In this document: piece by piece, positions 8,031 to 54,748 of the stretch | How positions within the stretch are numbered: position 1 is the stretch's first letter | Layout of the letters: each line of letters opens with the position of its first letter | NCBI GenBank assembly: GCA_019456185.1 | Contig: VRUH01000006.1 | Coordinates: 26,113-90,112, forward strand | Origin: Candidatus Glassbacteria bacterium | GTDB taxonomy: Bacteria > Gemmatimonadota > Glassbacteria > GWA2-58-10 | Direction: 5' to 3' | Length of the DNA stretch: 64,000 bases | Program-made: the position numbers and the translations under genes | Notes under the pieces: model-generated | What the model saw: the letters and a program-made list of their open reading frames with translations, nothing else | The model's database searches: none | Told to the model about the DNA's origin: nothing

Positions 8031-8401
8031 CCCTTGCGTTGATCCAATACCGGTTAATGACCTGAATAATAAGAAATTTCCGCCCTAACAGCCGAGAATA
8101 GTTAAGCTAACAGGGATAGTTTCCTCTGGAAATGAAAATCAAACATGGGAAAGGTATCATTATAATTAAGTGAGCTACAGGGCCGCCATTATTCCGTTCT
8201 CCGTACTACAGAGCGAAATATCATACTCTCTCAATCTTGATTATTCTTTCGTTCTGTTGTATCCTTGCTGAGTTTCGATTTCCGCCAAATACAACCTGCC
8301 AAATGCTTTGAAACTGATAATCCGGCGCGATTGCCAGGCAGACGGCGACAGCGGACAGACTGATCTCCATCAAGAGCAGGTACAGGTCCCTCGGAGAGAT
8401 A

Positions 8402-9967
8402 ATGGCGATATTTTATCGAATTGCGTCCGGTGTCAGAAATTTCCTCGGCGGCAGGCAACAGCAGTTGGCCGGCATGTTGATCGGCGCGTCGGTTGTACTG
8501 CTTGCCTTCGCCGGGCTGCGCTACACTTCCAGCGACAGTTTCTGCGTTTCCTGCCACGTCCATCCCGGCGCCGACTCCACCTGGACACTTTCGACCCATT
8601 ATAAAAACGAAAGCGGAGTCATCGTCCACTGCTACGAGTGCCACCTTCCCCCCCCGGGCCTGTACCACCTGAGCGAAAAAGCAAGGATGGGGCTGCGCGA
8701 CGCGTTCAGCACGGTTTTCCGGGACACGGACAAGATCGACTGGGAGGAGCGCTCGGCGTTGTACAACGCTCACACTTACACCTATGACAGCTCCTGCCTC
8801 AGCTGCCATGCCGATCTCTACAGCGTCGGCCTGACCGACAAGGGCGTGGAAGCCCACAAGCATTACGAAAGCCAGCCGGACAAGCTTTACTGTATCAACT
8901 GCCATAAAACCGTGGGCCATTTCCACGAGGCAGCATTGATTGCCGAATCGGATTCGGCCCCGGGACAGAGACCGGCCCGGCGAGTGGAGACAGGCTCCGA
9001 GCTGGCTGGCTACAGCGAGACAATCCCCGGCACGGACGTGACTTTCGAGATGGTGGCGATCCCGGGCGGCCCGTTCATGATGGGCAGCCCGGATGATGAA
9101 CCGCTGCGCGACCAGGACGAGGGCCCCGTGCAGGAAGTGGCTCTCAGTCCGTTCTGGATCGGCGAGACCGAGGTAACATGGAACGAGTTCCGCGCCTATT
9201 TCGACGAGACCTCGCAGCCGGCGCGCAAAGACACGCTCTCCGACCACGTGGCCGACACCAGCTACGTGGACACCCGCACAGGTCCCACGCCCAAATACGG
9301 CTCCCCGGATATCGGCGGCTGGGAGTCGGCCTACTCGATGACCCATCACGCGGCCACCGAATACTGCAAGTGGCTTTCGGAGAAAACCGGCAGGGAATAC
9401 AGGCTGCCCACCGAGGCTGAATGGGAGTACTGCGCCAGGGCGGGCACGCAAACCCCGTATTTCTTCGCGGGCGACCCGGCTAAAATGAGCGCCAGGCCCC
9501 TGCTCAATCGGATCTTCGGTACGGAGGACGGAGAGCTGGCGCGGTTCGTGTTTTTCCGGCGCAACAGCGGCGGCCAGGTGACAAACCCCTACACCAACGA
9601 ACCCAACCCGTGGGGCCTGTACAACATGCTGGGCAACGTCAAGGAGTTCTGCCGCGATTTCTACGCAGCCGACGCCTACTTCCGCGCTTACGAGGGTGCG
9701 CCGGGACTGTCCTCCGGCCCGTTAGTCGACCCCGCCGGACCGCCGACCGGCAGCGAGCACGTGGTGCGCGGCGGCTCCTACCTCAGCGACCCGGCCGATT
9801 TCCGCTCGGCCAGCAGGGGACGTACCGCTCACGACGCCTGGCTGTTAACCGACCCGCACAAACCGAAAAGCAAGTGGTGGTATTCCGACTGCATGGAAGT
9901 GGGCTTCCGCGTGGTCAGGGAGCCGGATGAGAGCGAGGCCGTGATCTCCGCCGGCGGAACGGAGTAA
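8402..9967 (+). CDS. NapC/NirT-type tetraheme cytochrome c fused to an FGE-sulfatase (SUMF1-fold) domain
   Basis: N-terminal TM helix; CVSCH, CYECH, CLSCH and CINCH heme motifs; C-terminal GGPFMMGS, RLPTEAEWEY, NPWGLYNMLGNV and RGGS motifs. Confidence 0.85.
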   Translation: MAIFYRIASGVRNFLGGRQQQLAGMLIGASVVLLAFAGLRYTSSDSFCVSCHVHPGADSTWTLSTHYKNESGVIVHCYECHLPPPGLYHLSEKARMGLRDAFSTVFRDTDKIDWEERSALYNAHTYTYDSSCLSCHADLYSVGLTDKGVEAHKHYESQPDKLYCINCHKTVGHFHEAALIAESDSAPGQRPARRVETGSELAGYSETIPGTDVTFEMVAIPGGPFMMGSPDDEPLRDQDEGPVQEVALSPFWIGETEVTWNEFRAYFDETSQPARKDTLSDHVADTSYVDTRTGPTPKYGSPDIGGWESAYSMTHHAATEYCKWLSEKTGREYRLPTEAEWEYCARAGTQTPYFFAGDPAKMSARPLLNRIFGTEDGELARFVFFRRNSGGQVTNPYTNEPNPWGLYNMLGNVKEFCRDFYAADAYFRAYEGAPGLSSGPLVDPAGPPTGSEHVVRGGSYLSDPADFRSASRGRTAHDAWLLTDPHKPKSKWWYSDCMEVGFRVVREPDESEAVISAGGTE

Positions 9968-10067: not shown

Positions 10068-11015
10068 ATGTCCGAGAAACTGAACCGCAGGAATTTCCTT
10101 TCCAAAGCCGCATTGGGCGCTACCGGGGCAGGCATGTTCCTCAGCTGCGAGGAGCGGAACCTGGCCGAAAAGCAGGGCGACATGCCCAAAGAACCGCCGA
10201 TCAAGGGCCTGCAGACCGGTAAGATCGGCAACGTGACCTTGAGCCGGCTGATGTGCGGCGGCAACCTGGTCAGTGGTTTCGCCCACGCCCGCGACCTGAT
10301 CTACGCCTCGAACCTGATCAAGGCCTACCACACCGACGAGAAAGTGCTCGAGACTGTCCAGCTCTGCGAGGAGAACGGGATCAATACGGTGATTTTCCGT
10401 TGTGACGATCAGATTGTGGGGCTGATGAACAAGTACTGGAAAGAGCGCGGCGGCAAGATCCAGTGGCTGGCCCAGACCTATCCAAAGCTCGGCGACCTGA
10501 CCAGCAACATCCAGATTGCGATCGACAACGGAGCCATCGGCGCGTTCGTGATGGGCGGGATAGCCGATAAGCTGGTGGCCGACGGCAAGGTGGACGTGCT
10601 GGGCGAGATCAACGGCTTCATCAAGCAGAACGGGCTGATCTCGGGGTTCGCCGGACATGCGCTCGAGGTGCCGATGGAGGTCGAGAAGGCCGGGATCGAC
10701 AACGATTTCTACATGAAGACCTTGCACCATCACGGCTACTGGTCGGCCATTCCCGAGGAGAAACACGACAACCTGTGGTCCAACACTCCCGAGGAAACAG
10801 CCGAGTTCATGAAAAGTGTCGAGAAGCCGTGGATTGCCTACAAGGTGCTGGCCGCCGGGTCGATCCATCCACGCGAGGGCTTCCGCTACGCGTTCGAGCA
10901 CGGGGCCGATTTCCTCTGCGTCGGCATGTTCGACTTCCAGGTCCGCGAGGACGTGATCGTGACCAAGAGTATCCTCTCCAAGGATATCACCCGGGACAGG
11001 CCCTGGCGGGCATAG
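10068..11015 (+). CDS. Tat-exported aldo/keto-reductase-like oxidoreductase
   Basis: NRRNFLSK twin-arginine signal; IG...SRL.CGGN and KPWIAYKVLAAG motifs of the AKR-like TIM barrel. Confidence 0.7.
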   Translation: MSEKLNRRNFLSKAALGATGAGMFLSCEERNLAEKQGDMPKEPPIKGLQTGKIGNVTLSRLMCGGNLVSGFAHARDLIYASNLIKAYHTDEKVLETVQLCEENGINTVIFRCDDQIVGLMNKYWKERGGKIQWLAQTYPKLGDLTSNIQIAIDNGAIGAFVMGGIADKLVADGKVDVLGEINGFIKQNGLISGFAGHALEVPMEVEKAGIDNDFYMKTLHHHGYWSAIPEEKHDNLWSNTPEETAEFMKSVEKPWIAYKVLAAGSIHPREGFRYAFEHGADFLCVGMFDFQVREDVIVTKSILSKDITRDRPWRA

Positions 11016-11047
11016 ATCGATTTAAGCTGACTCTTTGGCCGTAAGCT

Positions 11048-11083
11048 AAAAAGGGGCCGCCCGTTTGCACCGGCGGCCCCTTT
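11048..11083. terminator. Bidirectional intrinsic terminator
   Basis: AAAAAGGGGCCGCC...GGCGGCCCCTTT between convergent genes. Confidence 0.75.
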
Positions 11084-11116
11084 ACTGTAACAGGCTGTTA
11101 TCATTTTTCCGACCAT

Positions 11117-12562
11117 CTACTTCAGCTCTTTCAGCAACTCCAGCAGGAATCTCCAGGTATTCCCCAGGGACGGGATGTTCAGCCGCTCGTCGGGTGAGTG
11201 CGGGTTCTGGATTGTCGGTCCCAGCGAGATCATGTCCATCTCCGGGTAGATTTTCCCGATCACCGCGCATTCCAGACCGGCGTGGATAATCTCGAACTCC
11301 GGCTCCCTGCCGTAAAGACCGCTATAAACTTCCCTGCATTTGCCGATCAGCGGCGATTGCAGATTCGCCGGCCAGGATGGGTACTCGCTGCCGAACTTAC
11401 ACTGAGCGCCGGCCAGGGCGGCAATCGAGGTAATCGCCGAGGAAACCATCTCGATCCGGCTCATTACCGAACTGCGCTGACTGGTCAGGATGTGCAGTTT
11501 CCCCTCACGCAGCCCCACCACCGCGAAACTGTTCGAGGTCTCAACCTCCCCCTCCACATCGGCCGACATCTCGATAACCCCGTGGGGCAAGGCGTTCATC
11601 AGGTTTGCGACCCTGGACGAATCCTCGACACTCAGCGCACCGGCGGTTGCGATTTCCTGCCGCGCGGCTTCGATTGCAACGCCCCTGTCGCTGGCGGCAA
11701 ACTCTGCCCTCGCAGCCTGCTCGAAAGCGGAGACAGCTTTTTCCAGCTTTCCGCCCTGGCCCGCTGCGCAGGCAATAACGGCCTCCGCCTCGCGGGGGAT
11801 AGCGTTGTGCGCGGTCCCGCCCTCGATCGAGACCAGCCGCAGCGAGACGTGCCGACCGGCCTGACAGAGCGCCCGGCCCAGCAGTTTGTTGGCGCAGGCC
11901 CTGTGTTTGTCGATATCCACTCCGGAATGCCCGCCGAGCAGTCCGCTCACCGTAATCCGGTAAACCTCCTCAGTATCAGCCAGCGGCGCCGCGGGAGACT
12001 CCAGCGTGATCACTGTTTCTCTGCCGCCCGAACAGCCGATCGTAAAGACGCCCTCATCCTCGGAATCCAGGTTCAGCATGATCCGCCCGTTCACAAATTC
12101 GGCCTCCAGCCGGGCCGCCCCGGTCAGTCCCTGCTCCTCGTCAACCGTGATCAGCAGTTCCAGCGGCGGGTGCGGGATATCGCTTCGTCCGGCCAGCGCC
12201 AGTCCCATCGCAATCGCGATCCCGTTGTCCGCGCCCAGGGTAGTCCTGTCGGCGGTCAGCCAGTCGCCATCGATTATCGAGCGGACCGGGTCCCTGGAGA
12301 AATCATGGTCCGAATCAGGGGTTTTCTCGCAGACCATGTCCATATGGCCCTGCAGCACAACTGTGGGCGCGTCCTCGCAGCCCGCGGAGCCGGGGATCTC
12401 GATTACCACATTGCCCAGCTTATCGGCCCGGGTGGTCAGCCCCGCGTTTTTGCCCCACTCCTGCAGCCACTGCGAGATTCGTTCCTCCTGTTTCGACTCC
12501 CGGGGTACGGCGTTGATCCGCTCGAAAAGTTCAAGTATCACTTTTACGTCCTGATCCATCAA
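11117..12562 (-). CDS. pepD: Aminoacyl-histidine dipeptidase (M20 family)
   Basis: LQGHMDMVCEK, TLGADNGI, VDEEQGLTGA, GGHSG and IHAGLEC motifs. Confidence 0.92.
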   Translation of the reverse strand: MMDQDVKVILELFERINAVPRESKQEERISQWLQEWGKNAGLTTRADKLGNVVIEIPGSAGCEDAPTVVLQGHMDMVCEKTPDSDHDFSRDPVRSIIDGDWLTADRTTLGADNGIAIAMGLALAGRSDIPHPPLELLITVDEEQGLTGAARLEAEFVNGRIMLNLDSEDEGVFTIGCSGGRETVITLESPAAPLADTEEVYRITVSGLLGGHSGVDIDKHRACANKLLGRALCQAGRHVSLRLVSIEGGTAHNAIPREAEAVIACAAGQGGKLEKAVSAFEQAARAEFAASDRGVAIEAARQEIATAGALSVEDSSRVANLMNALPHGVIEMSADVEGEVETSNSFAVVGLREGKLHILTSQRSSVMSRIEMVSSAITSIAALAGAQCKFGSEYPSWPANLQSPLIGKCREVYSGLYGREPEFEIIHAGLECAVIGKIYPEMDMISLGPTIQNPHSPDERLNIPSLGNTWRFLLELLKELK

Positions 12563-12766
12563 TCACCTCTCTCGTTATTGATCTTCCGAACCGAAATTAC
12601 GCGTGCAGTGAAATTAGCGCATCGGAAGCCGGTTGAAAAGGTTCTGTGCATCCGGTTAACCGGCGGCCGGCCGGGTGCCCAATAACCTTGTCATTCTGCC
12701 GGAACCGGGGAATATTTGAGTGTCAATCCAGAGTAGAGTTATTGAATTTGGCCGTGAGGAGAGAAA

Positions 12767-14186: not shown

Positions 14187-14360
14187 ACAACCCCCTGTTT
14201 CCCCCTTTTCTAAGGGGGACTAAAACCGGATAACCTCAGCCACCGTGCAAAAAAGCCTGAGACCGGACAGGCACCCCTCTCGAGAGGGGTGCCTGCACAA
14301 GCAGGCGGGGTGTGTATTCCCCTTAACAAAGGGGGTGCCTGCGAAGCAAGCGGGGGTTGT
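14187..14360. repeat. Composite REP/BIME-like palindromic element
   Basis: CCCCCTT-ttct-AAGGGGG, a perfect 28-bp palindrome at 14268-14295, GCCTGC-N-GCAGGC hairpins, CCCCTT-aaca-AAGGGG. The ends ACAACCCCC...GGGGGTTGT are inverted repeats. Confidence 0.7.
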
Positions 14361-14484
14361 CCCGTTTTAAGATTATGAAACAACTTATAGCAAAAACGAA
14401 CGCGGCCATGACCCGTAACGAGTCATGGCCGCATTTTTATGTTTATCCCGATCATGGACACAGTCTTCACAGGATTATCAACAA

Positions 14485-14571
14485 TCAACCGAATACGCCG
14501 GTTCCCATCATTAAAACACCAATAATCACGAATGCAACCACGATCACTAATGTGATATCTTCGCGCTTCAT
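14485..14571 (-). CDS. 28-aa single-TM small protein downstream of the SSS transporter
   Basis: MKREDITLVIVVAFVIIGVLMMGTGVFG*; purine-rich AAGGGG SD-like motif; starts 34 nt after the SSS stop. Confidence 0.55.
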   Translation of the reverse strand: MKREDITLVIVVAFVIIGVLMMGTGVFG

Positions 14572-14605
14572 CGCCCCTTATACTCCCCTCTGCTCTGGTG
14601 TCCGG

Positions 14606-16387
14606 TTAAATTTCCTTGACGACAGTCATTTGTTCACTGGTAGCCCGCTCTATCTGCCCGTCGGTGACTGTGGCCATCTCGGCCTTGAAACACAGCGCCC
14701 ACATCATCACGATACCCAGTACGAACCAGGTGATCTGCCACGACCACAGCGCCGGGAAACCGGCGAACGAAAAAGCGTCGTTGCCAACTATGCAGGCCGG
14801 CCCGATAGCGAACATGAACCACAGCGGCACTACCACTTTCATCGCCTTGCGCCACTTGCGTCCCGTGGGACTCGGCCTGTCCAGATTGTCCAGCCACTTT
14901 CTGACTTCCCGCTGGCGCTCTTTGGTTTCCCGGTCGTCCCTGATCCCCACCCCGCGGCACAGGTATGCAACCAGCAGGCCGATACCGGTGCCCCAGGCGG
15001 CGGAATGAATCGTGAGCGGGTACTTGAAGACTCCGTAGGTCAGGAACACCGCGATCATACCGGCCAGCACACCCAGGGTCGTGCCGATCGCCGGCCATCT
15101 GAAACCCCACAGACTGCCCATCAGGGGGACATACATCACGAAGCCGAACGCCGTGGCCAGCCCGCCCAGCATCACGATCGCCGCAGTGGAGGTCATCCCG
15201 ATCGCAAGCGCCGCCACAGTCAGCAGGGTGGTGAAAAGCCGGTTCATCCAGATCTGCTCGGAGTGGCTGCCCTGTTGCTTTCGTACATAGCGCCACCAGA
15301 AATCCCGCAGGAGAATCGACCCGCCGGTTCCGATATACGGCGCTGCGGTGGAGTGCATGGATGCTATCGCCCCGATAAAGACCAAGCCCAGCATGACCGG
15401 CGGCAGAAAATTTTTCATCAGCAGGGGCACCACGTCCTTATCGGTAGCAAGGCCCACAAAGTCCGGGTGACCGGAGTTCTGCAGCAGGATCGCTCCCAGG
15501 CCCTGGAAGGCGGTGAAGAAAAACAGGGCGCAGCCCACGACGAAAGTGGACATGAATACCTGCTGCCAGGCGAACGGCCTAGGGTCCTTGTTGGCGAACT
15601 GCCACATCGTGAACGCGGGCGAGGCCTGGATACCCATCAGGGAGAACATGTAGGTCAGGATCATCAACGCGGTCCAGTTGGTTTCTCCCACGGTGAAATC
15701 CATAATCGAGGGTACTTCCAGGTACTTCCGTTCAAGCTTACAGATTTCCGCCGCGAACTCGGTCCAGCCGCCGAAATAGGCCAGGACGTAAACGCCAAGG
15801 ATTACGATGCCGCCCACCAGCAGGATAAACTGGACTACGCCCACCCAGGTGCTGGCCCGCAGTCCGCCGGTGACCACGTAGAACCAGACCACGAACGCCA
15901 GGAAAATCGCACCGTAGGACTCCGGGAAACCGGTTACCCAGTGAAACAGCGCCCCGGCCGCCATCAACTGGATAGCCGAATAGAACAGGGCGTACAGGAC
16001 TGCCGTAATCACCACCAGCCAGCGCAGGGCCTCGTTGTTGTAATAGTAGGCGTACATGTCGCCCGGGGTGATAAACCCGTAGCGCTTACCCATCATCCAG
16101 GCTCGCTTGGCGAAAAACGCGCCGGTTATCGGGATGGTCAGCACGTAGAAGGAAGCGAATGCGTAAGCGAGACCGTACTTCCAGATCAAACCCGGGTGGC
16201 CGATCGTGGTCCAACCGCTGAACGAGGCGGCCGAGGCGGCCAGCAGAAACGCGAGAAACGGGATCGCCCTGCCGCCGATCGTAAAATCCGATGACGTTTT
16301 TTCAGCCTTGTAACCCTTTAATCCCCAATAGAAACAGTAGATGATGTAAGTTCCCAACATCAGGTACACCCAGGTTACTCCACTCAT
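14606..16387 (-). CDS. Sodium:solute symporter family (SSS) transporter
   Basis: About 593 aa, highly hydrophobic; DFTIGGR, ASFSGWT..GHPG and ITPGDM motifs; GGAGG before ATG 16387. Confidence 0.88.
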   Translation of the reverse strand: MSGVTWVYLMLGTYIIYCFYWGLKGYKAEKTSSDFTIGGRAIPFLAFLLAASAASFSGWTTIGHPGLIWKYGLAYAFASFYVLTIPITGAFFAKRAWMMGKRYGFITPGDMYAYYYNNEALRWLVVITAVLYALFYSAIQLMAAGALFHWVTGFPESYGAIFLAFVVWFYVVTGGLRASTWVGVVQFILLVGGIVILGVYVLAYFGGWTEFAAEICKLERKYLEVPSIMDFTVGETNWTALMILTYMFSLMGIQASPAFTMWQFANKDPRPFAWQQVFMSTFVVGCALFFFTAFQGLGAILLQNSGHPDFVGLATDKDVVPLLMKNFLPPVMLGLVFIGAIASMHSTAAPYIGTGGSILLRDFWWRYVRKQQGSHSEQIWMNRLFTTLLTVAALAIGMTSTAAIVMLGGLATAFGFVMYVPLMGSLWGFRWPAIGTTLGVLAGMIAVFLTYGVFKYPLTIHSAAWGTGIGLLVAYLCRGVGIRDDRETKERQREVRKWLDNLDRPSPTGRKWRKAMKVVVPLWFMFAIGPACIVGNDAFSFAGFPALWSWQITWFVLGIVMMWALCFKAEMATVTDGQIERATSEQMTVVKEI

Positions 16388-18117: not shown

Positions 18118-18153
18118 AAAAAAAAGGCCTGCCGGTTTCGGCAGGCTTTTTTT
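18118..18153. terminator. Bidirectional terminator closing the sel cluster
   Basis: A8-GGCCTGCCG-gttt-CGGCAGGC-T7, immediately after the stop at 18166. Confidence 0.85.
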
Positions 18154-18165
18154 CAAGATGACAGG

Positions 18166-19248
18166 CTAGTTTACCTTCTGCCAGTCGTGACTCTCCACAT
18201 CGAAAACAAATTTCACTTTTACTTCGTCCGGAATGTAGCACTTCTTGTCATCGCAGGCCTGATAGCCGAACGTACCCTCGATTACGAGGTTTTCGATTGA
18301 CGGAGCGTTATCCTGATCGCTGACACGCAGGTTTTTCTGGGTGCCGATCACGACTTCCTGCATGAAGCGGAATGAGCCGGAATAGGACGCCAACTCCTCG
18401 TCCAGCGCCTCCATTCTGATAATCTCCGCCTCGGGAAAGCGTGTTTCGAGACCCTTGTAGTACCGGGACTCTTTCAACTGCCAGGAAACCGGGATATATC
18501 CGCCTTCCACCTCCGGCGCATAGACATGCATCCTGTCTTTGAGGTGCACGTCGAAAATCAGCGTGATATGGTTGCCGGCACGGACCTCTGTCTGGCTGGC
18601 CCGGTATTCCAGGGTGAACGCGTTGGTTTCGAGCCTGCCCACCGGGATGTCGGGAGACCAGCCGAACTGCTGTATCAGCACTGATTCCTGGGTCACCCGC
18701 TCCCAGTAATTCTCCAGGAAAATCTTCTGTTGAACGACCTGGTCCGGACCGACAAGATACTGGCCTGGATGGGCGATCCCGTAGTTGCGATGATCTTTCG
18801 GAATGGTCTGGTTGATAATCCCGAACGCGTCGATCACTTCGTAGCCCGGATCGGCCAGCAGCGGAACCGCGATATTCTTCCGCGTGGCGAACTTGTTCAG
18901 TATCTCCGGTGTGTCCCGGCTGATCGCGCAGATTCCGAGACCCCGTTTCCGATATTCATCTTTAAGGTTTTCGAGCTCCACGAGCTGCGTTTTGCAGTAG
19001 CCTCACCAGTCCGCCGAACGGTAGAACAGGATCAGCAGACCGTTCGGCCCCGCCAGTGAACCAAAATCCTGTATCCTGCCGTTCTGGTCGGGCAGGCTGA
19101 ATGACGGTATTTTATCACCGACTTCCGGGCCAGACTGGCTTGCGCTGTCCTGGGCGTACAATGCGCCTCCATCCTCAGAGCATATCGCAGCCGATGCCGC
19201 AAACAGCAATATCAGCATTGGCAGAAAGAACAAAGCGGCTTTTCTCAT
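18166..19248 (-). CDS. Selenoprotein: exported AhpC/TSA (redoxin)-fold domain with a UxxC motif plus a DsbD-alpha-like domain (360 aa, Sec82)
   Basis: Track ORFs 19003..19248 and 18166..18981 are in frame across TGA 19003-19005, giving FYRSADW-U-GY-C-KTQL. Signal peptide, GGAG RBS, SECIS-like hairpin, C-terminal YQACDDKKCYIP. Confidence 0.9.
18972..19002 (-). promoter_or_regulatory. SECIS-like hairpin of the AhpC/TSA-fold selenoprotein
   Basis: CG(C)AGCUC-GUG-GAGCUCG; the G-initiated loop starts 22 nt after the UGA. Confidence 0.7.
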
Positions 19249-19361
19249 GGCTCTCCTCTCAGCGATTGGTCCAGTACCGGATTCCGTAACTGCATCTGTG
19301 TTGTCGAGCCAAATTAAGCTTTTTCCGCTTGCTGTGCAACACCATGCTTTGCGGGAAAAAT

Positions 19362-19459
19362 TGGCGGGAGCGCGTGAGAATCGAACTCACCGCGGACAGT
19401 ATTAGTGCCCGCCACCGGATTTGAAGTCCGGGAGGCACACCAGTTACCCATCCGCCCCC
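19362..19459 (-). tRNA. selC: tRNA-Sec (anticodon UCA)
   Basis: 98 nt. CCGGA-CUUCAAA-UCCGG anticodon arm, long variable arm GCGGGCA/UGUCCGC, T-arm GUGAG-UUCGAUU-CUCAC, G73 discriminator, encoded CCA; directly downstream of selD. Confidence 0.95.
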
Positions 19460-19491
19460 GCATATCCATCTTCGCTCGCCGGCTGGAAGTC

Positions 19492-20550
19492 TTATTTGAC
19501 CACGGCGATTCTCCCGGGATTCTCAGCGCTGACCCGGCCGATTACGGCAGCCTCGCGGTCTCCTTCCCGGTGCAGGGCCGCCAGCAACTCCTCGGCGGTC
19601 TCGGGCGCGATAGAGATCAGCAGGCCGCCGGAGGTCTGGGCGTCGAAAAAGATCATCCGCTCGTGCTCGCTCACATCCGGGCTGAAACTGACCACGCTCT
19701 CGAGAAATTCCTTGTTTTTGGACGTCCCGCCGGAGATAAACCCCGACTGCATGGTCCGGGCCAGCGCTTCCGGCAGATACGGTATCGCCCCGGCGTCCAG
19801 AGTCAGCCCCACTCCGCTGCCCCTGGCGACCTCGTGGGCGTGGCCCAGCAGGCCGAACCCGCTAACATCCGTGGCCGCGTGGGCCCCGAACGACACCATC
19901 AGCTCCGAGGCCGTCCTGTTCAAGCGGACCATAATCGAGGTGATCCGCCCGATCTCTTCATCGGTGAGCTTGCCGGCTTTCAGCGCCGTGGTCATGATTC
20001 CCATGCCGAGCGGCTTGGTCAGGATCAGCGTGTCGCCGGGACGGGCGGTGGAGTTGCGGACAAATTTCTGCGGGTGGACCGTGCCGGTAAGCGCCAGGCC
20101 GAACTTCAGCTCCTCGTCCTTGATCGTGTGCCCGCCCACGATCGGGCAGCCGGCCTCGGCGGCTTTATCAGTGGCACCGCGGATTATCTCGGCGATTGTT
20201 TCCAGATCGACTTTCTTTTCCGAGAAGCCGACGATATTCAGCGCGGTAACAGGCTTGCCGCCCATGGCGTAGATGTCGCTGAGCGAATTGGCGGCCGCGA
20301 TCTGGCCGTACTGGTAGGGATCATCGACCAGCGGCGTGATCACGTCCACCGTATTGACCAGGGCCAGCTCATCGCTCAGACGATACACTCCGCCGTCATC
20401 CGCGGTGCTGGTATCGACCAGCAGGTTCGGATCCGAGACAGGCGGCAGCATTTGCATCAGCTTGCTTAACTCCGTTAAGCTCAGCTTGGCCAGTCAACCG
20501 GCGCTGGCGACCAGCTCTGTCAGCCGCTTTCTTTTGTTCTTGTGGAACAT
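19492..20550 (-). CDS. selD: Selenide, water dikinase (selenophosphate synthetase), Sec-containing (U19)
   Basis: Frame extends through TGA 20494-20496 to ATG 20550 (GGAG RBS): MFHKNKRKRLTELVASAG-U-LAK. Also DDGGVY, NSLSDIYAMGG, GGHT, ATDVSGFGL and DAQTSGGLL. Confidence 0.95.
20458..20493 (-). promoter_or_regulatory. SECIS-like hairpin of selD
   Basis: AGCU-GA-GCUUAAC-GGA-GUUAAGC-A-AGCU: perfect 7-bp upper stem, G-initiated loop 21 nt after the UGA. Confidence 0.85.
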
Positions 20551-20616
20551 CCGGTTTCTCCCCGATTGCTTCATTCGAATCGCCACAACCGGTTAAAGTG
20601 ACAATGGCGGCAACCG

Positions 20617-22530
20617 TTACGTTTCTCTCAGCCGCCTGATATTTCCGCTGCGTTCGGTCAGACCGCGCTGGTCGAAATGAATCAGCAGCGGTGTTGCGTA
20701 TTTACGCGAGCAGCCGATCTTCTCGCGGAATTCCGACACCCTAATCTCACCATTTTGCCGTAATAATTCAACCAGAACCTTTTCCGCCTTTTCCACGGCG
20801 CTGCGGTGGAAAATCACCCGCTTGTCCGCTTCCGGCATGATTTCAACCAGCCGGCCCATCTCGATCAGTCCCCGGACGATATCCGCTGCTCTCTGCTCGC
20901 CAAGCTCCTGAAACCGTCCGGCCACATCCCTCAGCGACGGGGTCGTGAAACCGGCCCGGCTGTAGAGATCCTCGATTCCGGCCGCAGGCTCCCTGTCCCG
21001 CACGCTGAATTCGACAGCGTGGCCCTCCAGCGCGATCGCCTCGCCCCGCAGCACAGCCTGACCGCTGGCCGTCAACATCCGCAGGACAACCTCCCAGGCC
21101 GCGGAATCGGCATTTTCCAGCAATTTACTTTTCAGCTCCGACTGCTTGATTCCGTTCAGATACGGGTTTTGTTCATGGAAACTTTCCAGATATTCAACCG
21201 CCCTGCGGCATACTTTTTCCAACTCCCCGGTCAGCATTACCGCTTTGACGGTTTTCCGCCCGAGTCCTGTCAGAACTCCCTCGCCCAGCAGCTGTTCCAC
21301 GGTTTCGCGCACGCGGTTTTCCGGCAGAGCCAGTGCCCGGCTCAACTGTCCGGTTGTTTTCGGCGCCAGGGGCGTCGAGGCCAGGTGGTGCAGAATCAGC
21401 CGGTCGGCTCCGGCCTGCTCCAGCTCCTCGAGCTGCTGGATATCCCGCGCCCCCAGATATTTCAGTTTCTCGGGGTGCACCTCCAGGATCGTCCCGCCGC
21501 CGATCGTGACCGGAGGCGAGTAACTGCGGATGATAAACCTGTCGCCGGTATCGGCAGCCACCGGTTCCTCAAGCCTGAACTGCACCACAGTCGCCTCCCC
21601 CGGCGCAACCGCTTTCCCAACCAGCGGCACAACCCTGGCCAGCAGTTCCCGGCAGCCGAGGTGAAGCCTGATTCTGGTCCTGTTCTTCAGTGGCTGAGCG
21701 CTTTCGAGCAGGTACAGCCTGGCGTTGACCATACAGGTGGGCGAAAAATAACCGGGGCTGGCCAGCATGTCGCCGCGCTCGACCTCATCCCGCTCGACAC
21801 CTGTCAGGTTGATCGCCGCACGCTGACCCACGCCGCTCTCGGCTACCTCCTCATTATGCACCTGAATTTTTCGCGCCCTGACCTCTCTGCCCCGCGGCAG
21901 CAGCTCCAGCCTGTCGCCGGCGCGCAGGCTGCCGGCCAGGACAGTGCCGGTGACAACATTGCCGATCCCCTTGAGGACAAACGATCTGTCGATCCAGTAA
22001 CGGAAGATACCCTTGTCATCCCTGGCCGGGGCTTCGCGAATCTCCTGCTCCAGCACCGCCCGGAACTCCGCAATCCCCTCCCCTGTCCGGCTGGAGAGGC
22101 ACACAACCGGCGCATCCTTGAGGAGCGTACCGGCCACGAACGCTGAGACTTCCTCTTTGACCAGCTCCAGCCAGTCCCGGTCGACGAGGTCGATCTTGGT
22201 CAGCGCAATAATCCCGCGACGGACATCCAGCAGGCGCAGGATGTCGAAATGCTCCCGGGTCTGGGACATGATCCCGTCATCGGCGGCGATTACCAGGATC
22301 ACCGAATCGATAGTGGTAATGCCGGCCAGCATGTTTTTGATAAACTTCTCGTGCCCCGGCACATCGATTATGCTCACGTCGGGTCCGTAGAACACGTAAC
22401 CCAGATCGATAGTCATGCCGCGCAGCTTTTCCTCCGGCAGCCTGTCCGCGTCGATATCAGTCAGGGCTTTGAGCAGCATGGTCTTGCCGTGGTCGATATG
22501 GCCGGCGGTGCCGATAATCGTGTGTTTCAT
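20617..22530 (-). CDS. selB: Selenocysteine-specific elongation factor
   Basis: [19 protein letters not shown] and [12 protein letters not shown] motifs; C-terminal winged-helix [11 protein letters not shown]; 637 aa. Confidence 0.97.
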
Positions 22531-24020
22531 CCGGGTGAATTCCTGCCTGGCCGGGCTGGGTGGTTGCCGTCAGCCGATTTCACGGGCTTGCTCCGGCAGT
22601 TTTTTAAGGCTCCGCCAACAAGCCCGGCGAGCGTATCCGTCTCGCGGGGATGGACCGTGCGCAGGTCCAGCAGGTAACGGTCCTCGGCAATCCGGCCGAA
22701 TACGGGCGGATCGCCCAGCCGCAGACGGCGCGCAAGCTCGTCGGCGGAAACCCGCTCACCGCCGATAGCCACCAGACGGGTCGGGATTCCGCAGGCCGGC
22801 ATCGCACCGCTGCCCATCTGCGATTCACCGTCGATTATCTCAAGCTTGATACTATCGCCTGCTTCCGGGCGCACAGCTTCGATAAACTTCTTTGCCCGTT
22901 GTTCCAGTTCCTCCACACCGGCGGCTGCCATCCGCAGGACGGGCAACTGATCGAACAGCACCTTCTCATCCAGGAAAAGTTTCAGGGTGGCCTCCAGCGC
23001 CGCGTAGACCATTTTATCGCAGCGCAGGGCGCGGCTGAGAGGGTTGTTTTTCAGCATGTCCACGTATTTTTTCCGGCCCACCGCGATACCGCACTGAGGA
23101 CCACCGAGCAGCTTGTCTCCGCTGAAAGTGACCACGTCCGCGCCGTCGCGGATACTCTGAACGACCACGGGTTCCGGCGGCAAACCGTAGCCCGTGAAAT
23201 CCAGCAGGCAGCCGCTGCCGATATCATGGACAAGCGGCAGAGTGCGGGAGTCGCAGAGCGGTTTCAATTCCGCAAGGGGGACCTCGCTGGTAAAACCCCT
23301 GATCCGGTAGTTACTGGGGTGGACTGTCTGCACCAGCGCCGTACGCTCGGCGATCGCTTTTTCATAGTCGGCGAGGTGGGTCCTGTTGGTGGTGCCGACC
23401 TCGATCATTTCCGCGCCGCTGAGGCGCATCACGTCCGGCATCCTGAACGATCCGCCGATCTCCACCAACTGGCCCCTGGAAACCAGCACCTCCCGCTGGT
23501 CGGCCAGCGTATTGAGCACCAGCAGGACCGCGGCGGCATTATTGTTGACCACGATCGCAGCCTCGGCGCCGGTCAGCAGGCGGAGCAGTTCCTCGACATG
23601 GGCATGACGGCTGCCGCGCCTGCCCGAGGCCACATCGATCTCCAGCGTGCAGTAATTCTCCACCGCCCGGGCCAGTGCATCCCTGGCCGTATCGGCCAAC
23701 GGCGCCCTGCCCAGACCGGTATGCAGGATAATCCCGGTGGCATTGATCGCCGGGCCGAGACCGGGACGGGATTTAGCGCGAACCCGCCGGGCAACCTCGC
23801 ACGCGACAGAGCCGGCGGACAGATCGATAGCAGCCGGCTGATCCGCAGGAGCCGCCAGGACCGTGTCGCGCAATTCCTGCAGGACTGCCTTGATTGTCTC
23901 TTTGACCAGCCGCTTGGGAAATTGCTCGCCGAGAAGCTGAATCACCGGGTTGGCGAGCATTCTCGTGGTGCTGACAATATCTTTCAGCATCAGCTTTCCG
24001 GCCGCTGAATCGTGTTCCAT
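22527..24020 (-). CDS. selA: L-seryl-tRNA(Sec) selenium transferase
   Basis: [49 protein letters not shown] (PLP Lys). Stop overlaps the selB ATG (ATGA). Start at 24020 (or 23990) is inferred. Confidence 0.96.
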
Positions 24021-24050
24021 CCCCGCATTTCCTTTCCAGAGAGCCGCCAC

Positions 24051-24080
24051 AAAAAAAGGCCGCCGGAACCGGCAGCCTTT
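24051..24080 (-). terminator. Intrinsic terminator between the TlpA-like selenoprotein gene and selA
   Basis: Minus strand AAAGGCUGCCG-GUUC-CGGCGGCC-U7, ending 30 nt before the selA ATG. Confidence 0.75.
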
Positions 24081-24104
24081 GTCAGCCGATTATCGGAACA
24101 GGAG

Positions 24105-25514
24105 CTACTGCGAGCTGTTGATTTCGATCCTGACCGGGATGTCCTGCCGGCGGTACAGGCAGGTGCCGTTGAGATCCTCGCAGACGTAATACAGTGAATA
24201 CGCCGGAACGACAACCGTGCCCCCGGCGTTTTCCGGGCATTTGATTTCGAATTCGAGCCTGCGGGTCTCCTGGCTGACCGGTTCCGGAGGTATGGGCACT
24301 GTCAGGTGACGGTTATCGACCTGCCACCCGTCCGGCGTGTCAATCCAGAAAACCAGGTCCTCCATCTCGTTGTTCCAGTGCGCCTTCTGTGACAGGTCCG
24401 GCCGGAGCACGACATGCACGCGGCCTGTTTCTCCCGGCGCCAGCGTTCCCGGCACGACAGTCACCTCGGCCCTGATCAGCCTCCGCTCATCGCGGAATAT
24501 CCGCCCATCGGGGTCCGGACTCCGCAGCTCGGTCCCGCCGGCCTCGAACGACTCGGACGGGTAGGCGAACTCAGCGCCTCCGGGTTCCACCCGCAGGACC
24601 GAGGGCGTCTCGCCCCTGGCTTCGATCTCCCGCCTGGCCTGGTTGACCCAGTCGTAAAACGAATAGGGCTTATCCAGCCTGGGGCCGTACTGCTGGATCC
24701 GACGTCGCCAGATATACTGGTTCGGGTCGAGCTCCAGCGCCCTGCCCCAGTGGGAGATTGCAGCTTCGAAATCACCCTCCCGGCGATAATCCGAATCGTA
24801 GCGCGCGCGGTAAGCGGCGCCCAGCCGGAAGTGGGTCGGGCCGTGGTCCGGTTCCAGCTCAACCGCCTCGCGGTAGGCCTCGACAGCCCTGTCCAGCGCT
24901 TCATCCCCGCCCCAGAGGACCAGGGAGGCGGCGTAATTCCGCTGGTTGTCGGCGCTCCGGCCCGCATGCTCCTGAAGCCGGGCGAGATCGGGAGCTTCGG
25001 CCCGGACCGGCACCGGCCGTGTCGAGCCGACATAGTCTGTTTCCAGAAATCGGCTGTACTCTTCGTCGCTGGGACGAAGCGCGCGTACGATACCCTGTTC
25101 ATCGATCAGGGCCGTAATCGGCACCGCCAGCACTTCGAGCAGGTTTTGCCGGTCGACCAGGATCGGCCAGTCCATCTGCTGCCACTGCATGAACAGGCGG
25201 GCCCTGTGGGGATGCTGTTCCTGGATGATCCCCACCATCTTGACGCGGCCCGCTGCCCTGTCTTCCTCGGTTTTTTTGTGCCACCCGGGCACGTGCTTGC
25301 GGCAGCCCGCTCACCAGGATGCGAAGATATGCAGCACGAGTTTCTGGCCGCGGTAAGCCGCCACCGAGAGCGGCCGGCCGTCATCGAGCGACGGGAACGG
25401 CAGGTCGGGGAACGGCTCGCCGACAGCGATCCGGGGAGCACCCGCGACAAACGACGTCATCCCCAAAAGCAGTGTCGAGAGCAGGACCACCGCGATCCTG
25501 AGAACATCTGTCAT
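24105..25514 (-). CDS. Selenoprotein: exported TlpA/redoxin domain with a UxxC motif, TPR region and DsbD-alpha-like C-terminal domain (469 aa, Sec68)
   Basis: Track ORFs 25311..25583 and 24105..25292 are in frame across TGA 25311-25313, giving HIFASW-U-AG-C-RKH. GGAGG before ATG 25514; TPR-like AVEAYREAVELEPDHGPTHFRLG; C-terminal YYVCEDLNGTCLY. Confidence 0.9.
25278..25310 (-). promoter_or_regulatory. SECIS-like hairpin of the TlpA-like selenoprotein
   Basis: GUGCC-CGGGU-GGCAC; the loop starts 24 nt after the UGA with G at position 2. Confidence 0.65.
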
Positions 25515-25564
25515 ATCGGCCTCCACAGCCATGTAATACCACTCCGTGATGTCTGAGTTGCATT

Positions 25565-30653: not shown

Positions 30654-30849
30654 TTTTCGATCAAACTTCGGTGAATAAACTGAAAAAGCACAAACCCGAT
30701 CAATCGTTCCTTTACCCAAGATTATGTCCCGAGTTAACCCGGAGTCCCTGATTCAAGATTCTCCTTCCTAAACATCCGCCGAACAGGCAATATTCCATCA
30801 TGGCCGCAGGACGAACGTCGTTTCAATTTTGCAAGCACCGGAGGATTCC

Positions 30850-33800
30850 ATGCGTGGAGATACGGTTTTTCTGCTGCTGCTCGTCAGCTTTCTCCTGAGC
30901 GCCGCACCCCTGCTGACGGCCGAGGACCCGGCTCGTTCTCCTGTCCGGAAAATTCCGGCCTCCGGCAATGACTTGACTGTCGATGGCTCGCTGGAGGACA
31001 GAATCTGGCGCTACGCCGCCGGGATCCAACTGGAACCGGCGGAAAACGGTGTCCCTGCGGAGTTAAACGGGACAATTAAAGTAATCTCCCGCGGCGGCCG
31101 CCTCTGCCTGTCGGCTTTCCTCCCGGAGCCCGCCGGCAGGGTGCTGGCCAGGTCCATCGGTTATAACCCGGTTTGGGAACAAGACGCAGTCACGTCTCCG
31201 TTGGTAGAGGATATCCTGATTATAAAGCTTGCCACCGGGAGCGGTGAAAACGACCTGTCTGAACTGAAAATCGAGATTAATCCTCTGGGGGCCTGCCGCC
31301 TGGAGCGAAACGGCAGTCCCGTACCGGCTTCAGAGATACTCTCAGCGGCCGCGATTACAGACAGCGGCTGGAGCGTGGAATGCGCGATACCCTACGGCGA
31401 GCTCTATCAGGGAGACCGCTCCGGGGAAATCGAACTGGCTGTAACCCGGTTTCGCTCGAGGCGGCCCCTCGATCCCGCGTTCAGGTGGATTTCCTCTCCC
31501 GGCAACCGTCCAACCCGCTTAAAGCTTAATGACCATACCGGCGCTGAGAAAATCGACCCGCCAAAGCCGGCTCCCCCGGCAATGGGCAATACCGGCCCCG
31601 CTCTTCGCGTGGGCCGTGTCCAGGCAGTCCCCTCACTGGCTATTGATCCCGACGACCCGTTCTGGAACCGAATAAACGCCTTCCATCTGATGCGGAACGA
31701 ACCCAACCCGCGTCAGCCCCGCTTCCCAACCGAAATCAAATGGGTGCACGACGGGAAGCGCCTGGCGATACTTTTTGCCTGTTCGGAAGACGCGCGGGTG
31801 GACTGTGACAACGGGACGCGGGACAGTAATATCGCCGGCGACGACCATGTGTGCATTTACCTCGCGACTACAGGGTCCTCTTTTATCGAAATTCAAATCA
31901 ACCCGGTCGGGACGGTAAGGGACGCCAAAGGGCAGGGCCCGCATATGTTCAGGACAAGCTCTGGCGCATGGACCGGGGAGGTGGAAACAAACTACCTGAT
32001 CAACAACGACGCCTGGTACCTGAGGGTGAACCTGCCGTTGGACCAGATTGCCGGGGAACTGGGCGAGACAGCTGTCCCGGAACAGTGGAGAGTGCTGCTG
32101 GGCAGGACCAGGAGGTCCAGAATAGGTGAAAACGAAGAGATAAGCACGAATCCGGTGATCGGCAATCCCTACCTGCTGGCTCCGGCAAGGTTCCGCGGGC
32201 TCGTGCTGAGCGGCCAAAACCCGGTGGATCTCATTCCCGATCAAAAAGACTCCCTCGGTTCCGGGCAAAACGGCATTGCCTCACAACTGGAAGCAACCGA
32301 TTCGCACGTTTTTTCGAGAGTGGAAAGGAAATATCTCGAGATTACCGATATGCTCGACCGTTACCTCGAAGACAGGATAAAAACCATAGCCATCCAGGAG
32401 CACCGGCAGTGGGAGCAGGTCAAAACACTTCAGGATTGGGAGAAATTCCGGGATCTCAGGGTCGAGAAATTGAGAAAAACACTCGGTCCTTTGCCTGGGG
32501 ACAAATGTCCCCTGTTGTACCAGGAATCCGGTTCACTCGAAGGCGAGGGTTATCAGGTAAAAAATGTTTCCTTTCAGAGCAGACCGGGATTCTTTGTCGC
32601 GGCCAACCTCTACCTGCCCGCTGAGCCGAAAGACGACATGCCCGGAATAGTCATTATCCCGAGCCATCACTATCCCAAGATTCAGGGCGAGTTGAAAGAC
32701 AGCGGAATAGTCTGGGCCAGGTCCGGCTGCGCGGTGCTTGTCCTGGAAAGTCTCGGCTATGGTGAACGCGTGGAGGCCACACCCTGGTACCGTCAACCCT
32801 ACCACTCGGAAAGCCAGCTTGAATTTCAACTCAACCTTATCGGCCAAAACAGGCTTGCCTGGATCGCCTGGGACGTGAGCAGGGCGGTCGATCTGTTTTT
32901 CGAGCTCGGCAATGTCGATCCCGACAAGCTGATCCTTATCGGCTCGGTAACCTGGGGCGGAGGGCGTCCGGCGGCGCTGGCCGGCCTGCTGGACGAACGA
33001 TTCGATGCGGTGGTCCCGTTCAACTGGGGCAGGGTTTACTGGGAAAGCTATGGTATCCTCCGCAGTGCGGTCGACCACCTCACTCCCTGGCTTACCTGTG
33101 CCGCCATCGCTCCCAGAAAGTTCGTCTACGCCCACGAATTTTCCTGGGAGGGCGAGGAAGGGCACGCCCTCCCGTCGATCTCGGTTCCAGCCTGGCCGAG
33201 GTATGAGAAAGTGTATGGCCTCTACGATGCACGGGGCAATCTCAGCTCGGCGCAGGGAAAAGGACTGTTGCGGGTGAAGCAAACCATGGGCGACTGCTAC
33301 AGCCTGGGATCGGTGCAGCGCAGGCCGCTGTACCGGATATTCAACGAATGGTTCGATATCCCGATGCCGTCAGATGAAGATCTCAACATCGAGCTCGACT
33401 CGTGGCTCACATTCGACGGCGCCAGAAAAGGCCTGGACGTTGTCAAGTTGAAGGAATCCCTGAGGAGAATGCCCGATACATTACTGCTTAGCATCACACC
33501 CCAGGTCGACGCGCGGCTCGACAGGAGAGCCCTGCACGAACTGGCGCGGGATTTCGCCGGCAGGCAGCTGAGAGCCGCCAGGAATAACTTGGCGCAAAGT
33601 AATTCAAATGATCTCAAGCTGAAACTGGCTGGGAGGATGGAAAGAGTTCTCGGCGATACCGGTCCGCCCTCCGTAGCGGATGCTCAAACACTGTGGAAAA
33701 AGTCGCTGGACGGCGCAGTAGTGGAAGCGCTCGAGCTTGAGCCGGAACCGGGGATTATGGTTCCTCTGCTGATAATCAAACCCGCGCAGGCTGCAAAAAG

Positions 33801-45423: not shown

Positions 45424-45470
45424 CTGGAGTCAAAACAGCCTGTCAACTAGTTGGATTGCCCTGTCTCCTC

Positions 45471-52399: not shown

Positions 52400-52421
52400 C
52401 AACTACAGGGAAGCGGATTAT

Positions 52422-54721: not shown

Positions 54722-54748
54722 TTCACTTTCCCGGAGTCAAGCGGCAGC

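Follow-up and report, generated by a model that had tools for sequence, protein, structure and literature searches.

The subject of this analysis is a stretch of 64,000 nucleotides from Candidatus Glassbacteria bacterium (contig VRUH01000006.1, positions 26,113 to 90,112 of the forward strand), in the following called the window, and within it a block of genes for the synthesis and decoding of selenocysteine (Sec, U), which is flanked by two genes named here geneA and geneB. On the minus strand, the order is geneB, selA, selB, selD, tRNA-Sec (selC), and geneA; the coordinates of all elements are listed in Table 1. This layout agrees with an initial annotation of the same DNA, which had claimed that selA-selB-selD-selC is bracketed by two genes on the same strand. 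The reading frames of selA and selB overlap in the sequence ATGA, and geneA is located downstream of the tRNA-Sec gene, separated by a gap of 113 bp. All four components of the Sec machinery (selA, selB, selC, and selD) are present in the window. An in-frame TGA occurs in three genes of the block, namely geneA, geneB, and selD. In selD, this codon occupies positions 20496-20494 in the context SAG-U-LAKLS, and the same TGA is kept in the related contigs L161-L164; thus, SelD is also a selenoprotein, and the number of selenoproteins encoded in the block is three rather than two. When the window was searched for other genes with an in-frame TGA, no further convincing selenoprotein was found. TGA is also the most frequent normal stop codon of the window (20 of 37 large open reading frames, ORFs); the genetic code of this genome is therefore not recoded. 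The nearest named relatives of SelB come from 'Gemmatimonadota bacterium', followed by KSB1, Zixibacteria, Calditrichota, and WOR-3. They place the host in the FCB group and not in the PVC group, which the Pfam content had at first suggested. The base composition of the window is unremarkable and no mobility genes were seen.

Two strong, terminator-like hairpins delimit the presumed transcription units. One of them is located between geneB and selA; for this reason, geneB is probably transcribed separately from the sel genes. The likely units predicted from these signals are geneB alone and selA-selB-selD-selC-geneA, the latter ending at the hairpin 3' of geneA. The hairpin in front of selA overlaps the annotated GTG start of this gene, so that the true start is probably located downstream at ATG 24020.

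Table 1. Features of the selenocysteine block and of related loci. Positions refer to the window unless a contig is named.
Feature	Position	Strand	Details
geneB	24105-25532	minus	ATG 25532 (alternative ATG 25514); 475 aa if read through
geneB Sec codon TGA	25311-25313	minus	context HIFASW-U-AGC-RKH; first residue of U-A-G-C
geneB candidate SECIS hairpin	25278-25292	minus	GUGCC-CGGGU-GGCAC; stem from 21 nt after the U of UGA
geneB thioredoxin-fold (Redoxin/AhpC-TSA) domain	25074-25424	minus	aa 37-153; Redoxin 2.7e-11, AhpC-TSA 4.4e-11
geneB TPR helical region	24687-24986	minus	aa ~183-282; Pfam TPR_11/TPR_1/TPR_2
geneB Ig-like beta-sandwich	24120-24476	minus	aa 353-471; AF2 pLDDT 80-92
geneB Cys pair C451/C458 (CEDLNGTC)	24159-24182	minus	C-x6-C
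Terminator-like hairpin between geneB and selA	24055-24080	minus	11-bp stem and T-run
selA	22527-24050	minus	selenocysteine synthase; Pfam PF03841 2.1e-144
selB	20617-22530	minus	Sec-specific elongation factor; GTP_EFTU, Beta-barrel_SelB, SelB-wing_2/3 (Pfam)
selD	19492-20550	minus	selenophosphate synthetase; TIGR00476 369.7 bits
selC (tRNA-Sec, anticodon UCA)	19362-19459	minus	ARAGORN; Rfam RF01852 70.4 bits, gathering score 47
geneA	18166-19248	minus	360 aa if read through
geneA Sec codon TGA	19003-19005	minus	context RSADW-U-GYC-KTQ; first position of U-G-Y-C
geneA SECIS hairpin	18972-18989	minus	CG-C-AGCUC-GUG-GAGCU-CG
geneA AhpC/TSA (Prx-like) domain	18727-19122	minus	aa 43-174; Pfam AhpC-TSA 3.4e-26
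geneA DsbD-alpha-like domain	18214-18612	minus	aa 213-345; Pfam DsbD_N (PF11412) 2.8e-4
geneA Cys pair C332/C337 (CDDKKC)	18238-18255	minus	
Intrinsic-terminator-like hairpin 3' of geneA	18127-18146	minus	
Third selenoprotein of related contigs	L161 15952-16578; L163 5344-5970; L164 11251-11886; JGI 3300072015 contig 8055-8717		

The recoding of the TGA in geneA can be traced by means of its relatives, of which a protein search found 423. Full-length homologues of about 360 residues contain the sequence RSADW-C-PxC-K, in which a Cys is aligned to the U of the window, and about 12 relatives with 271-274 residues are Sec forms that were shortened by gene callers. A metagenome scan yielded 80 geneA loci; the position of the Sec codon is taken by TGA in 72 cases, by a Cys codon in seven, and by TAA in one. 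Downstream of the codon, the family possesses a consensus hairpin CAGCUC-GUG-GAGCUG at +19 to +33 with a helix of 6 bp, which has the properties of a Sec insertion sequence (SECIS). In an alignment of 71 distinct sequences, 94.6% of the cells are paired, and three of the six base pairs show compensation with altogether 14 double-sided changes (10 sequences, for example, have A-U in place of G-C). The observed values were not reached in any of 500 shuffles, and control helices slid along the alignment were paired to just 15-45%. In the Cys forms, the hairpin is degraded. The homologue with TAA at the Sec position (L124) has an intact SECIS hairpin; this case is due either to a sequencing error or to a recently inactivated gene.

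The protein search for geneB gave over 2,400 relatives; among these, all of the best 120 cover just 74-84% of the query and start right after the TGA. In NCBI records, such proteins go by the name 'tetratricopeptide repeat protein' or 'hypothetical protein'; they comprise 375-402 residues and lack the active site. A scan using one genome per species identified relatives in 541 genomes, and 80 loci were kept for the analysis. The hosts belong to Acidobacteriota, Gemmatimonadota, Verrucomicrobiota, Planctomycetota, Poribacteria, Marinimicrobia, and others. All 80 loci align across the stop, and all have TGA inside the motif ASW-U-AGC-R-x-HVPG. The candidate SECIS element at +22 to +36 encodes V-P-G-W-H and consists of a 5-bp helix with a CGGGU loop. 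Its 15 nucleotides are nearly invariant among 81 sequences, despite the fact that the proteins are just 51-60% identical: third codon positions are fixed to 95-100% within the hairpin, compared with 48-86% in neighbouring conserved codons. The rare changes are mostly compatible with G-U pairs; because the helix is invariant, there is almost no covariation. A full-length Cys form of geneB was found neither among the 120 best hits nor among the best 150 of 445 strong (E<=1e-30) representatives of 50%-identity clusters nor among the 80 loci, and Cys counterparts come solely from the wider TlpA/ResA family. One protein, P0300, had been considered as a full-length Cys form and was rejected, as inspection revealed a frameshifted or garbled sequence.

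One point raised in the initial annotation was whether Cys aligns to U in homologues. This is the case for geneA with its full-length Cys forms and seven Cys loci, but not for geneB, for which no Cys orthologue was found. As the initial annotation requires, homologues align across the UGA: the reading frame and its flanks are conserved on both sides in 80/80 geneB and 72/80 geneA loci from several phyla, and the matches to AhpC-TSA and Redoxin span both sites. Judged by this conservation, both geneA and geneB encode genuine selenoproteins made by read-through, in which Sec occupies the attacking position of a thioredoxin-fold (Trx-fold) U-x-x-C motif, as had been proposed. An alternative, namely that the TGAs are ordinary stops and each 'selenoprotein' represents two genes or a pseudogene, is effectively refuted. 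It would be in line with the frequent use of TGA as a stop in the window and with the fact that gene callers and NCBI annotate the downstream halves alone; however, each TGA is located exactly at the first Cys of a CxxC within one Trx fold, the homologues with a Cys codon are uninterrupted, and the TGA is followed by a SECIS hairpin with compensatory changes, with the Sec machinery encoded next to it. It was the comparative analysis alone that picked out the SECIS hairpins. Folding of single sequences by minimum free energy did not (z-scores of +0.75, +0.22, and -0.67), and a scan with Rfam gave the tRNA-Sec as the sole match and no matching SECIS family. The rules for spacing and loop G applied here are those of the bSECISearch model.

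Read through, geneA begins with a signal-like N-terminus, followed by a peroxiredoxin-like (Prx-like) AhpC/TSA fold with the motif U-G-Y-C and by a domain of the DsbD-alpha type (DsbD_N). A hydrophobic, signal-like N-terminus according to a hydropathy criterion is present in 67/80 geneA relatives and likewise in 69/80 geneB relatives; both proteins thus look exported, as the initial annotation had stated. No NCBIfam model reaches its cut-off for geneA. The AlphaFold2 (AF2) model of the protein has a pLDDT value of 86.8; in full-length AF2 modelling, X stood in place of U. With this model, the best Foldseek matches were BCP/AhpE/PrxQ and ResA proteins, which superpose on the N-terminal domain with TM values of 0.7-0.79, and no DsbD-gamma chain was among the best 50 matches. 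The N-terminal domains, which had been assigned to DsbD-gamma, are Prx-like and ResA/TlpA-like instead, in agreement with the results from Pfam and NCBIfam. For the C-terminal domain of geneA, the proposed DsbD-alpha identity was corroborated: all 13 family members studied match PF11412 (best value 5e-12) and most database homologues have a precomputed match to it, so that membership in DsbD_N is clear at the family level. An hhalign comparison aligned the geneA segment YQACDD-KxCYxP with YQGCADAGFCYPP of E. coli nDsbD, which contains the catalytic pair C103/C109 (E 7.5e-4; the reference sequence was verified against 1JPE). The CDDKKC pair of the window is invariant across the family. Three relatives of 610-617 residues (P0006, P0007, and P0009) carry extra matches to DUF899 (PF05988, thioredoxin-like); they may represent the Prx-like-DsbD_N fusion in an enlarged form with more domains.

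The protein encoded by geneB consists of a signal-like N-terminus, a TlpA/ResA-like Trx fold with U-A-G-C, tetratricopeptide repeats (TPR), a conserved linker, and an immunoglobulin-like (Ig-like) beta-sandwich. In the AF2 model, helices extend over residues 183-305; the N-terminal 80 residues were without alignment depth and folded poorly. The linker after the TPR region is invariant (NQYIWRRRIQQYGPRLDKPYSFYDW...GGAEFAYP). The Cys pair CEDLNGTC is likewise invariant across the family, in which the last domain ends with YYVCEDxxGTCLYRRQD; hence, both C-terminal Cys pairs noticed in the initial annotation are present and invariant. Sub-threshold matches in NCBIfam are ResA, TlpA, StoA, and DsbE. 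The best one is NF041054 'ResA-like WAxxUGC', to which geneB does not belong by score (77.7 bits, cut-off 300). Neither in Pfam nor in NCBIfam (release 20) does a model cover the full architecture of geneB, and all NCBIfam matches are far below the cut-offs. In contrast to geneA, the C-terminal domain of geneB did not turn out to be of the DsbD-alpha type: DsbD_N was matched by 0/16 members, even at E<=1, and hhalign assigned to the domain a probability of 1.4% versus nDsbD (10 irrelevant columns) and of 0.8% versus the geneA domain. The best 50 Foldseek matches of this domain are generic Ig-like folds (C3 MG domains, TRAP, and PapD-like proteins) and no nDsbD was among them. Profile searches against PDB sequences with either C-terminal domain gave nothing meaningful. 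The C-terminal domain of geneB is thus not detectably DsbD-alpha; an Ig-like sandwich with a Cys pair in its last hairpin is a loose resemblance. Accordingly, the architecture which the two proteins had been said to share is common to them only in part, as their C-terminal domains show no detectable relation.

The block is kept in the window and in five related contigs (L161, L162, L163, L164, and a JGI contig), whose SelB proteins are at least 58% identical. The order in L161 is geneB-selA-selB-selD(U)-selC-...-geneA, and the JGI contig shows the same order. In L163, the tail of geneB is located at the start of the contig, followed by an L161-like order. L162 begins in selA and continues with selB-selD-selC-geneA. 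L164 also has an L161-like order, preceded by a geneB remnant with an internal deletion: at 5917-6465, residues ~5-108 (TGA retained) are joined to ~379-475, and the TPR region plus most of the Ig domain are gone. In L165, which is the next outgroup, geneB is missing upstream of selA. Outside the block, the neighbouring genes vary from one relative to another. In the wider families, linkage to sel genes was not found to be conserved: selA or selB lies within 10 kb of geneB relatives in 3/80 loci (the flanks add up to 10 kb or more in 52/80), sel genes are near geneA relatives in 0/80 loci, and tRNA-Sec was not found in any of the 160 geneA and geneB loci. The linkage is thus restricted to one clade and rare or absent elsewhere. 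The idea of a portable module, put forward in the initial annotation, is not supported; the arrangement is not unique to one genome either.

In four of the related contigs (L161, L163, L164, and the JGI contig), the block has one more gene between tRNA-Sec and geneA, which codes for a third secreted selenoprotein with a Trx fold. This protein has the deiodinase-like motif GACT-U-PPY(F), and the window lacks it. In gene calls, it is broken up into in-frame pieces of ~76-88 and 122 residues; on the JGI contig, it was deduced solely from two such in-frame ORFs. A gene for a multihaem c-type cytochrome (Cytochrome_C7/NapC-NirT-like) lies inside the block of L161 (16618-17343) and L163 (6173-6742), and is absent from the block in the window, L162, L164, and the JGI contig. 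On two unrelated contigs, genes of the geneA and geneB types are adjacent without sel genes, in tandem in L122 (6505-8328) and divergently in L053 (2325-5592); this is a weak hint at a functional link between the two families. In 7/32 geneA loci with enough upstream DNA, an anti-sigma gene of the NrsF family (PF06532) is located directly upstream, accompanied in five of the seven by a gene for a sigma factor of the extracytoplasmic function (ECF) type; both Sec and Cys forms are represented. In these loci (L115, L124, L131, L133, L136, L151, and L160), the NrsF gene is on the same strand, 0.3-3.4 kb upstream; the distance from its end to the Sec codon is 0.3-0.6 kb in six loci and ~2.5 kb in L160. 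ECF-sigma/NrsF-type systems respond to stress by metals, reactive oxygen species, and hypochlorite (PMC3511200, PMC3420878, PMC4436054). The context suggests that geneA is subject to envelope-stress regulation in soil bacteria of the Acidobacteriota type.

TlpA, ResA, CcmG, and Prx-like proteins are reductases of the cell envelope, which are kept reduced by DsbD-alpha, ScsB, or CcdA. The Prx-like protein PrxL, for example, is kept reduced by ScsB and has no detectable peroxidase activity; domains of the DsbD-alpha type donate electrons to clients that have a Trx fold or are Prx-like, and ScsB-alpha also occurs as a protein of its own (PMC3322552). Taken as a whole, the findings are in our view probably best explained by a lineage-specific selenocysteine island combined with envelope thiol-disulfide oxidoreductases, in which Sec replaces the attacking Cys. 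In this view, a complete Sec-decoding set (selA, selB, a Sec-containing selD, and selC) lies together with the genes for the secreted selenoproteins that depend on it. Both flanking proteins would represent the TlpA/ResA/Prx-like branch of the thioredoxin fold, with the N-terminal Cys of CxxC exchanged for Sec, and their function is most likely envelope thiol-disulfide reduction, by which envelope proteins would be reduced or repaired. The Sec residue would attack an oxidised target (a disulfide or a sulfenic acid), giving rise to a selenenylsulfide, which the neighbouring Cys would resolve. In geneA, it is most likely the Cys pair in the DsbD-alpha domain of the same molecule that would re-reduce the oxidised U-x-x-C, and this pair would in turn be reduced by a membrane transporter of the DsbD/ScsB/CcdA type encoded outside the window. 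The presumed electron path leads from the membrane transporter via the alpha Cys pair and U-x-x-C to the oxidised envelope target; geneA would thus be a client fused to its own donor domain. The reverse order, from UxxC to alpha, is possible, although the family to which the Trx domain belongs fits it less well. The TPR and Ig-like domains of geneB probably serve to bind the substrate, and its Cys pair would form a structural disulfide or act as a second redox site.

Several points weigh against this explanation or limit its reach. The sequence does not reveal in which direction electrons pass between the two centres of geneA, the export of both proteins is deduced from hydropathy, and both families are known from sequence and predicted structure only. 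The geneA protein of the window scores slightly below the gathering score of DsbD_N, which is 25 (21.3 bits for the whole protein, 24.6 for the isolated domain), and the nDsbD control in the Foldseek search with the whole protein was uninformative for the alpha domain, as the best 50 matches were all of the Prx/ResA type. The Cys pair of geneB may be purely structural. Neighbourhood clustering of the 80 geneB loci gave no conserved partner. Finally, a Pfam scan of the non-overlapping ORFs of at least 100 residues found no DsbD_TM or CcdA and no electron donor in the window, as the initial annotation had noted for the membrane component.

The model favoured in the initial annotation regards both proteins as soluble gamma-alpha units of DsbD: UxxC would be fed by CcdA encoded in trans or by quinol-linked cytochromes and would pass the electrons to the C-terminal Cys pair and from there to periplasmic clients. 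Our results support this relay in part, since the DsbD_N domain of geneA is genuine and includes the catalytic Cys pair, and since a multihaem cytochrome is encoded inside the block of two relatives. CcdA is known to reduce proteins of the TlpA/ResA type, such as ResA and StoA, directly. Furthermore, DsbD has been proposed to have arisen when alpha, beta, and gamma proteins, once separate, became fused (PMC3322552). However, the Trx domains match Prx-like/ResA/TlpA families, i.e. clients, and none of the Pfam matches at E<=0.1 (AhpC-TSA, Redoxin, AhpC-TSA_2, Thioredoxin, Thioredoxin_2, Thioredoxin_8, and GSHPx) is specific for DsbD-gamma. The C-terminal domain of geneB does not fit the model, the cytochrome is missing from the block of the window and of three other contigs, and no CcdA was found in the conserved neighbourhoods of the 160 family loci; as a description of both proteins, the relay is therefore unlikely. 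We assign the same low probability to the proposal that geneA is a Sec-dependent periplasmic peroxidase for H2O2 or organic peroxides, which is recycled by its DsbD-alpha domain. The closest structures are BCP/PrxQ/AhpE peroxiredoxins, the AhpC-TSA match is highly significant, homologues are named 'peroxiredoxin' in their source records, some of them sit in the ECF-sigma/NrsF stress loci, and a periplasmic peroxiredoxin pathway exists in Caulobacter (PMC3322552). The peroxiredoxin motif PxxxTxxC(U), however, is replaced in geneA by RSADW-U-GY-C with U at the Thr position, and RSADW-U-xx-C is the Trx-like motif that characterises selenoproteins of the 'Prx-like' class (PMC1088965); the lack of detectable peroxidase activity of PrxL, a Prx-like CxxC protein, likewise argues against this proposal (PMC3322552).

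Still less probable is a role of geneB in the maturation of cytochrome c or copper proteins, in which a CcmG/ResA/TlpA-like reductase with a TPR substrate binder would keep the cysteines of CxxCH or Cu sites reduced. The TPR module would presumably resemble the TPR protein CcmI. The nearest NCBIfam models (ResA, StoA, TlpA, and DsbE) point in this direction, as do the Trx plus TPR architecture common to geneB and NF041054 and the multihaem cytochromes encoded nearby in the window (8402-9964) and inside the block of relatives. On the other hand, all these matches are far from their cut-offs, no ccm/ccs or cox genes occur in the conserved neighbourhood of the 80 geneB loci, and L164 keeps the block but geneB only as a remnant. 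In addition to the selenocysteine island with envelope reductases, which we prefer, a more far-reaching interpretation can be formulated, which is possible but rather doubtful: geneB would be an undescribed, essentially obligate selenoprotein family with the secreted architecture Trx(UxxC)-TPR-Ig(CX6C), distributed over more than 500 species-level genomes and annotated everywhere as a shortened 'TPR/hypothetical protein'. geneB, geneA, and, in relatives, the deiodinase-like protein would then make up an envelope redox system that depends on selenium and in which the Cys pairs of the sandwich domains serve as second redox centres, that of geneB being an independently arisen analogue of DsbD-alpha.

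The remainder of the window contains several other conspicuous genes. The ORF at 8402-9964 (plus strand), listed as a NapC fusion in the initial annotation, joins an N-terminal NapC/NirT tetrahaem cytochrome domain (2e-25) to an FGE-sulfatase domain (2.6e-39), i.e. one similar to formylglycine-generating enzyme; in the locus L037, an FGE-sulfatase gene is located between selA and geneB. At 43930-47072 (minus strand), a gene of the MttB family (trimethylamine methyltransferase-like) lies beside a symporter of the sodium:neurotransmitter family. It has no in-frame stop and is, for this reason, probably a betaine-type methyltransferase without pyrrolysine. The region 51158-58296 (plus strand) comprises a MacB/FtsX-ABC efflux cluster with three consecutive paralogues of HlyD-type adaptors and an outer-membrane factor, and the region 58817-63954 (plus strand) contains genes for a MobA-like protein and for a cytoplasmic molybdopterin oxidoreductase that has Fer4 and FAD/NAD subunits; the molybdoenzyme has no in-frame TGA. 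Large plus-strand ORFs without a Pfam match at E<=1e-3 are found at 30829-34557 (1243 aa), 14357-16291 (645 aa), and 10068-12682 (315+495 aa); the ORF at 10068 begins with a Tat-like RRNFL motif.

The relevance of the locus lies in the proteins rather than in their arrangement. Two widespread secreted redox families depend on selenocysteine, yet public annotation stops at the UGA. The geneB family is of interest for its breadth, its apparently obligate Sec, and its systematic mis-annotation. That no Cys orthologue was found argues that selenium is chemically indispensable for the task of geneB, which is unusual among bacterial selenoproteins and makes this family a good system for studying why Sec is retained. 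The natural fusion of client and donor in geneA lends itself to studies of how DsbD-alpha recognises Trx-fold partners, with the selenenylsulfide as a reporter. By implication, Acidobacteriota, Gemmatimonadota, and their relatives from soil and sea would need selenium for the redox homeostasis of the envelope, and catalogues of selenoproteomes may under-count such proteins.

Among known systems, geneA is closest to the Prx-like thiol:disulfide oxidoreductase selenoproteins (PF00578, UxxC) from Geobacter, the Sargasso Sea, and the Global Ocean Sampling (GOS) data, with which it shares the AhpC/TSA fold, U-x-x-C instead of T-x-x-U/C, and the existence of Cys homologues (PMC1088965, PMC13188914); in addition to these, geneA possesses a C-terminal DsbD_N domain and a signal sequence. 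Fusions reported among the GOS selenoproteins are Prx/PP2C, Prx-like 2/Secretin_N, and Prx-like 3/Unknown_3 with a CxxC. With E. coli DsbD (alpha-beta-gamma) and ScsB, geneA has the DsbD_N domain in common, including the Cys pair aligned with C103/C109. It differs by the lack of membrane beta and gamma, by the C-terminal location of alpha and its fusion to a client-type Prx-like domain, by the spacing C-x4-C (C-x5-C in DsbD), and by the Sec in the partner centre. For geneB, the nearest described protein is NF041054, the GOS 'UGC-containing' Prx-like/TlpA selenoprotein. Both are Trx-fold selenoproteins of the secreted type, and residues 41-281 of geneB match positions 84-318 of the 354 positions of this profile, i.e. 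the Trx domain and a TPR-like region. In contrast to NF041054, the motif of geneB is U-A-G-C and not U-G-C, and the protein has ~190 extra residues, which form the invariant linker and the Ig-like domain with C-x6-C. The catalogued family 'thiol-disulfide isomerase-like (cd02966, UxxC)' might overlap with the Trx domain of geneB. The succession of a Trx fold and TPR is also found in the cytoplasmic chaperedoxins YbbN/CnoX, from which geneB differs by its predicted secretion, an active-type U-x-x-C, and the extra Ig-like domain. Both full-length architectures are undescribed in PMC13188914, PMC2398784, PMC1088965, PMC12013277, PMC13326102, and NCBIfam release 20, though a description beyond these sources is possible.

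The initial annotation had not recognised the arrangement of the block as a named system. However, selA, selB, and selC with flanking selenoprotein genes form an established pattern, and their clustering has been proposed as a unit enabling horizontal transfer of the Sec trait (PMC1794560). The block has the composition by which such clusters were defined, namely contiguous selA, selB, and selC plus an adjacent selenoprotein gene (Zhang et al. 2006), and is itself an ordinary instance of the known rule that sel genes lie beside the selenoprotein genes they serve. In the selA-selB-selC operons of Proteobacteria with fdhA, the machinery is likewise clustered with the selenoprotein gene or genes it serves; in the window, by comparison, the cargo consists of two (in relatives three) secreted Trx-fold selenoproteins, and a Sec-containing selD is located inside the block. 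As both UxxC chemistry in the Trx fold and the clustering of sel genes are already known, the locus combines an established theme with new cargo; what appears to be new are the two full-length architectures, a Prx-like-DsbD_N protein with Sec and a Trx-TPR-Ig protein with apparently obligate Sec.

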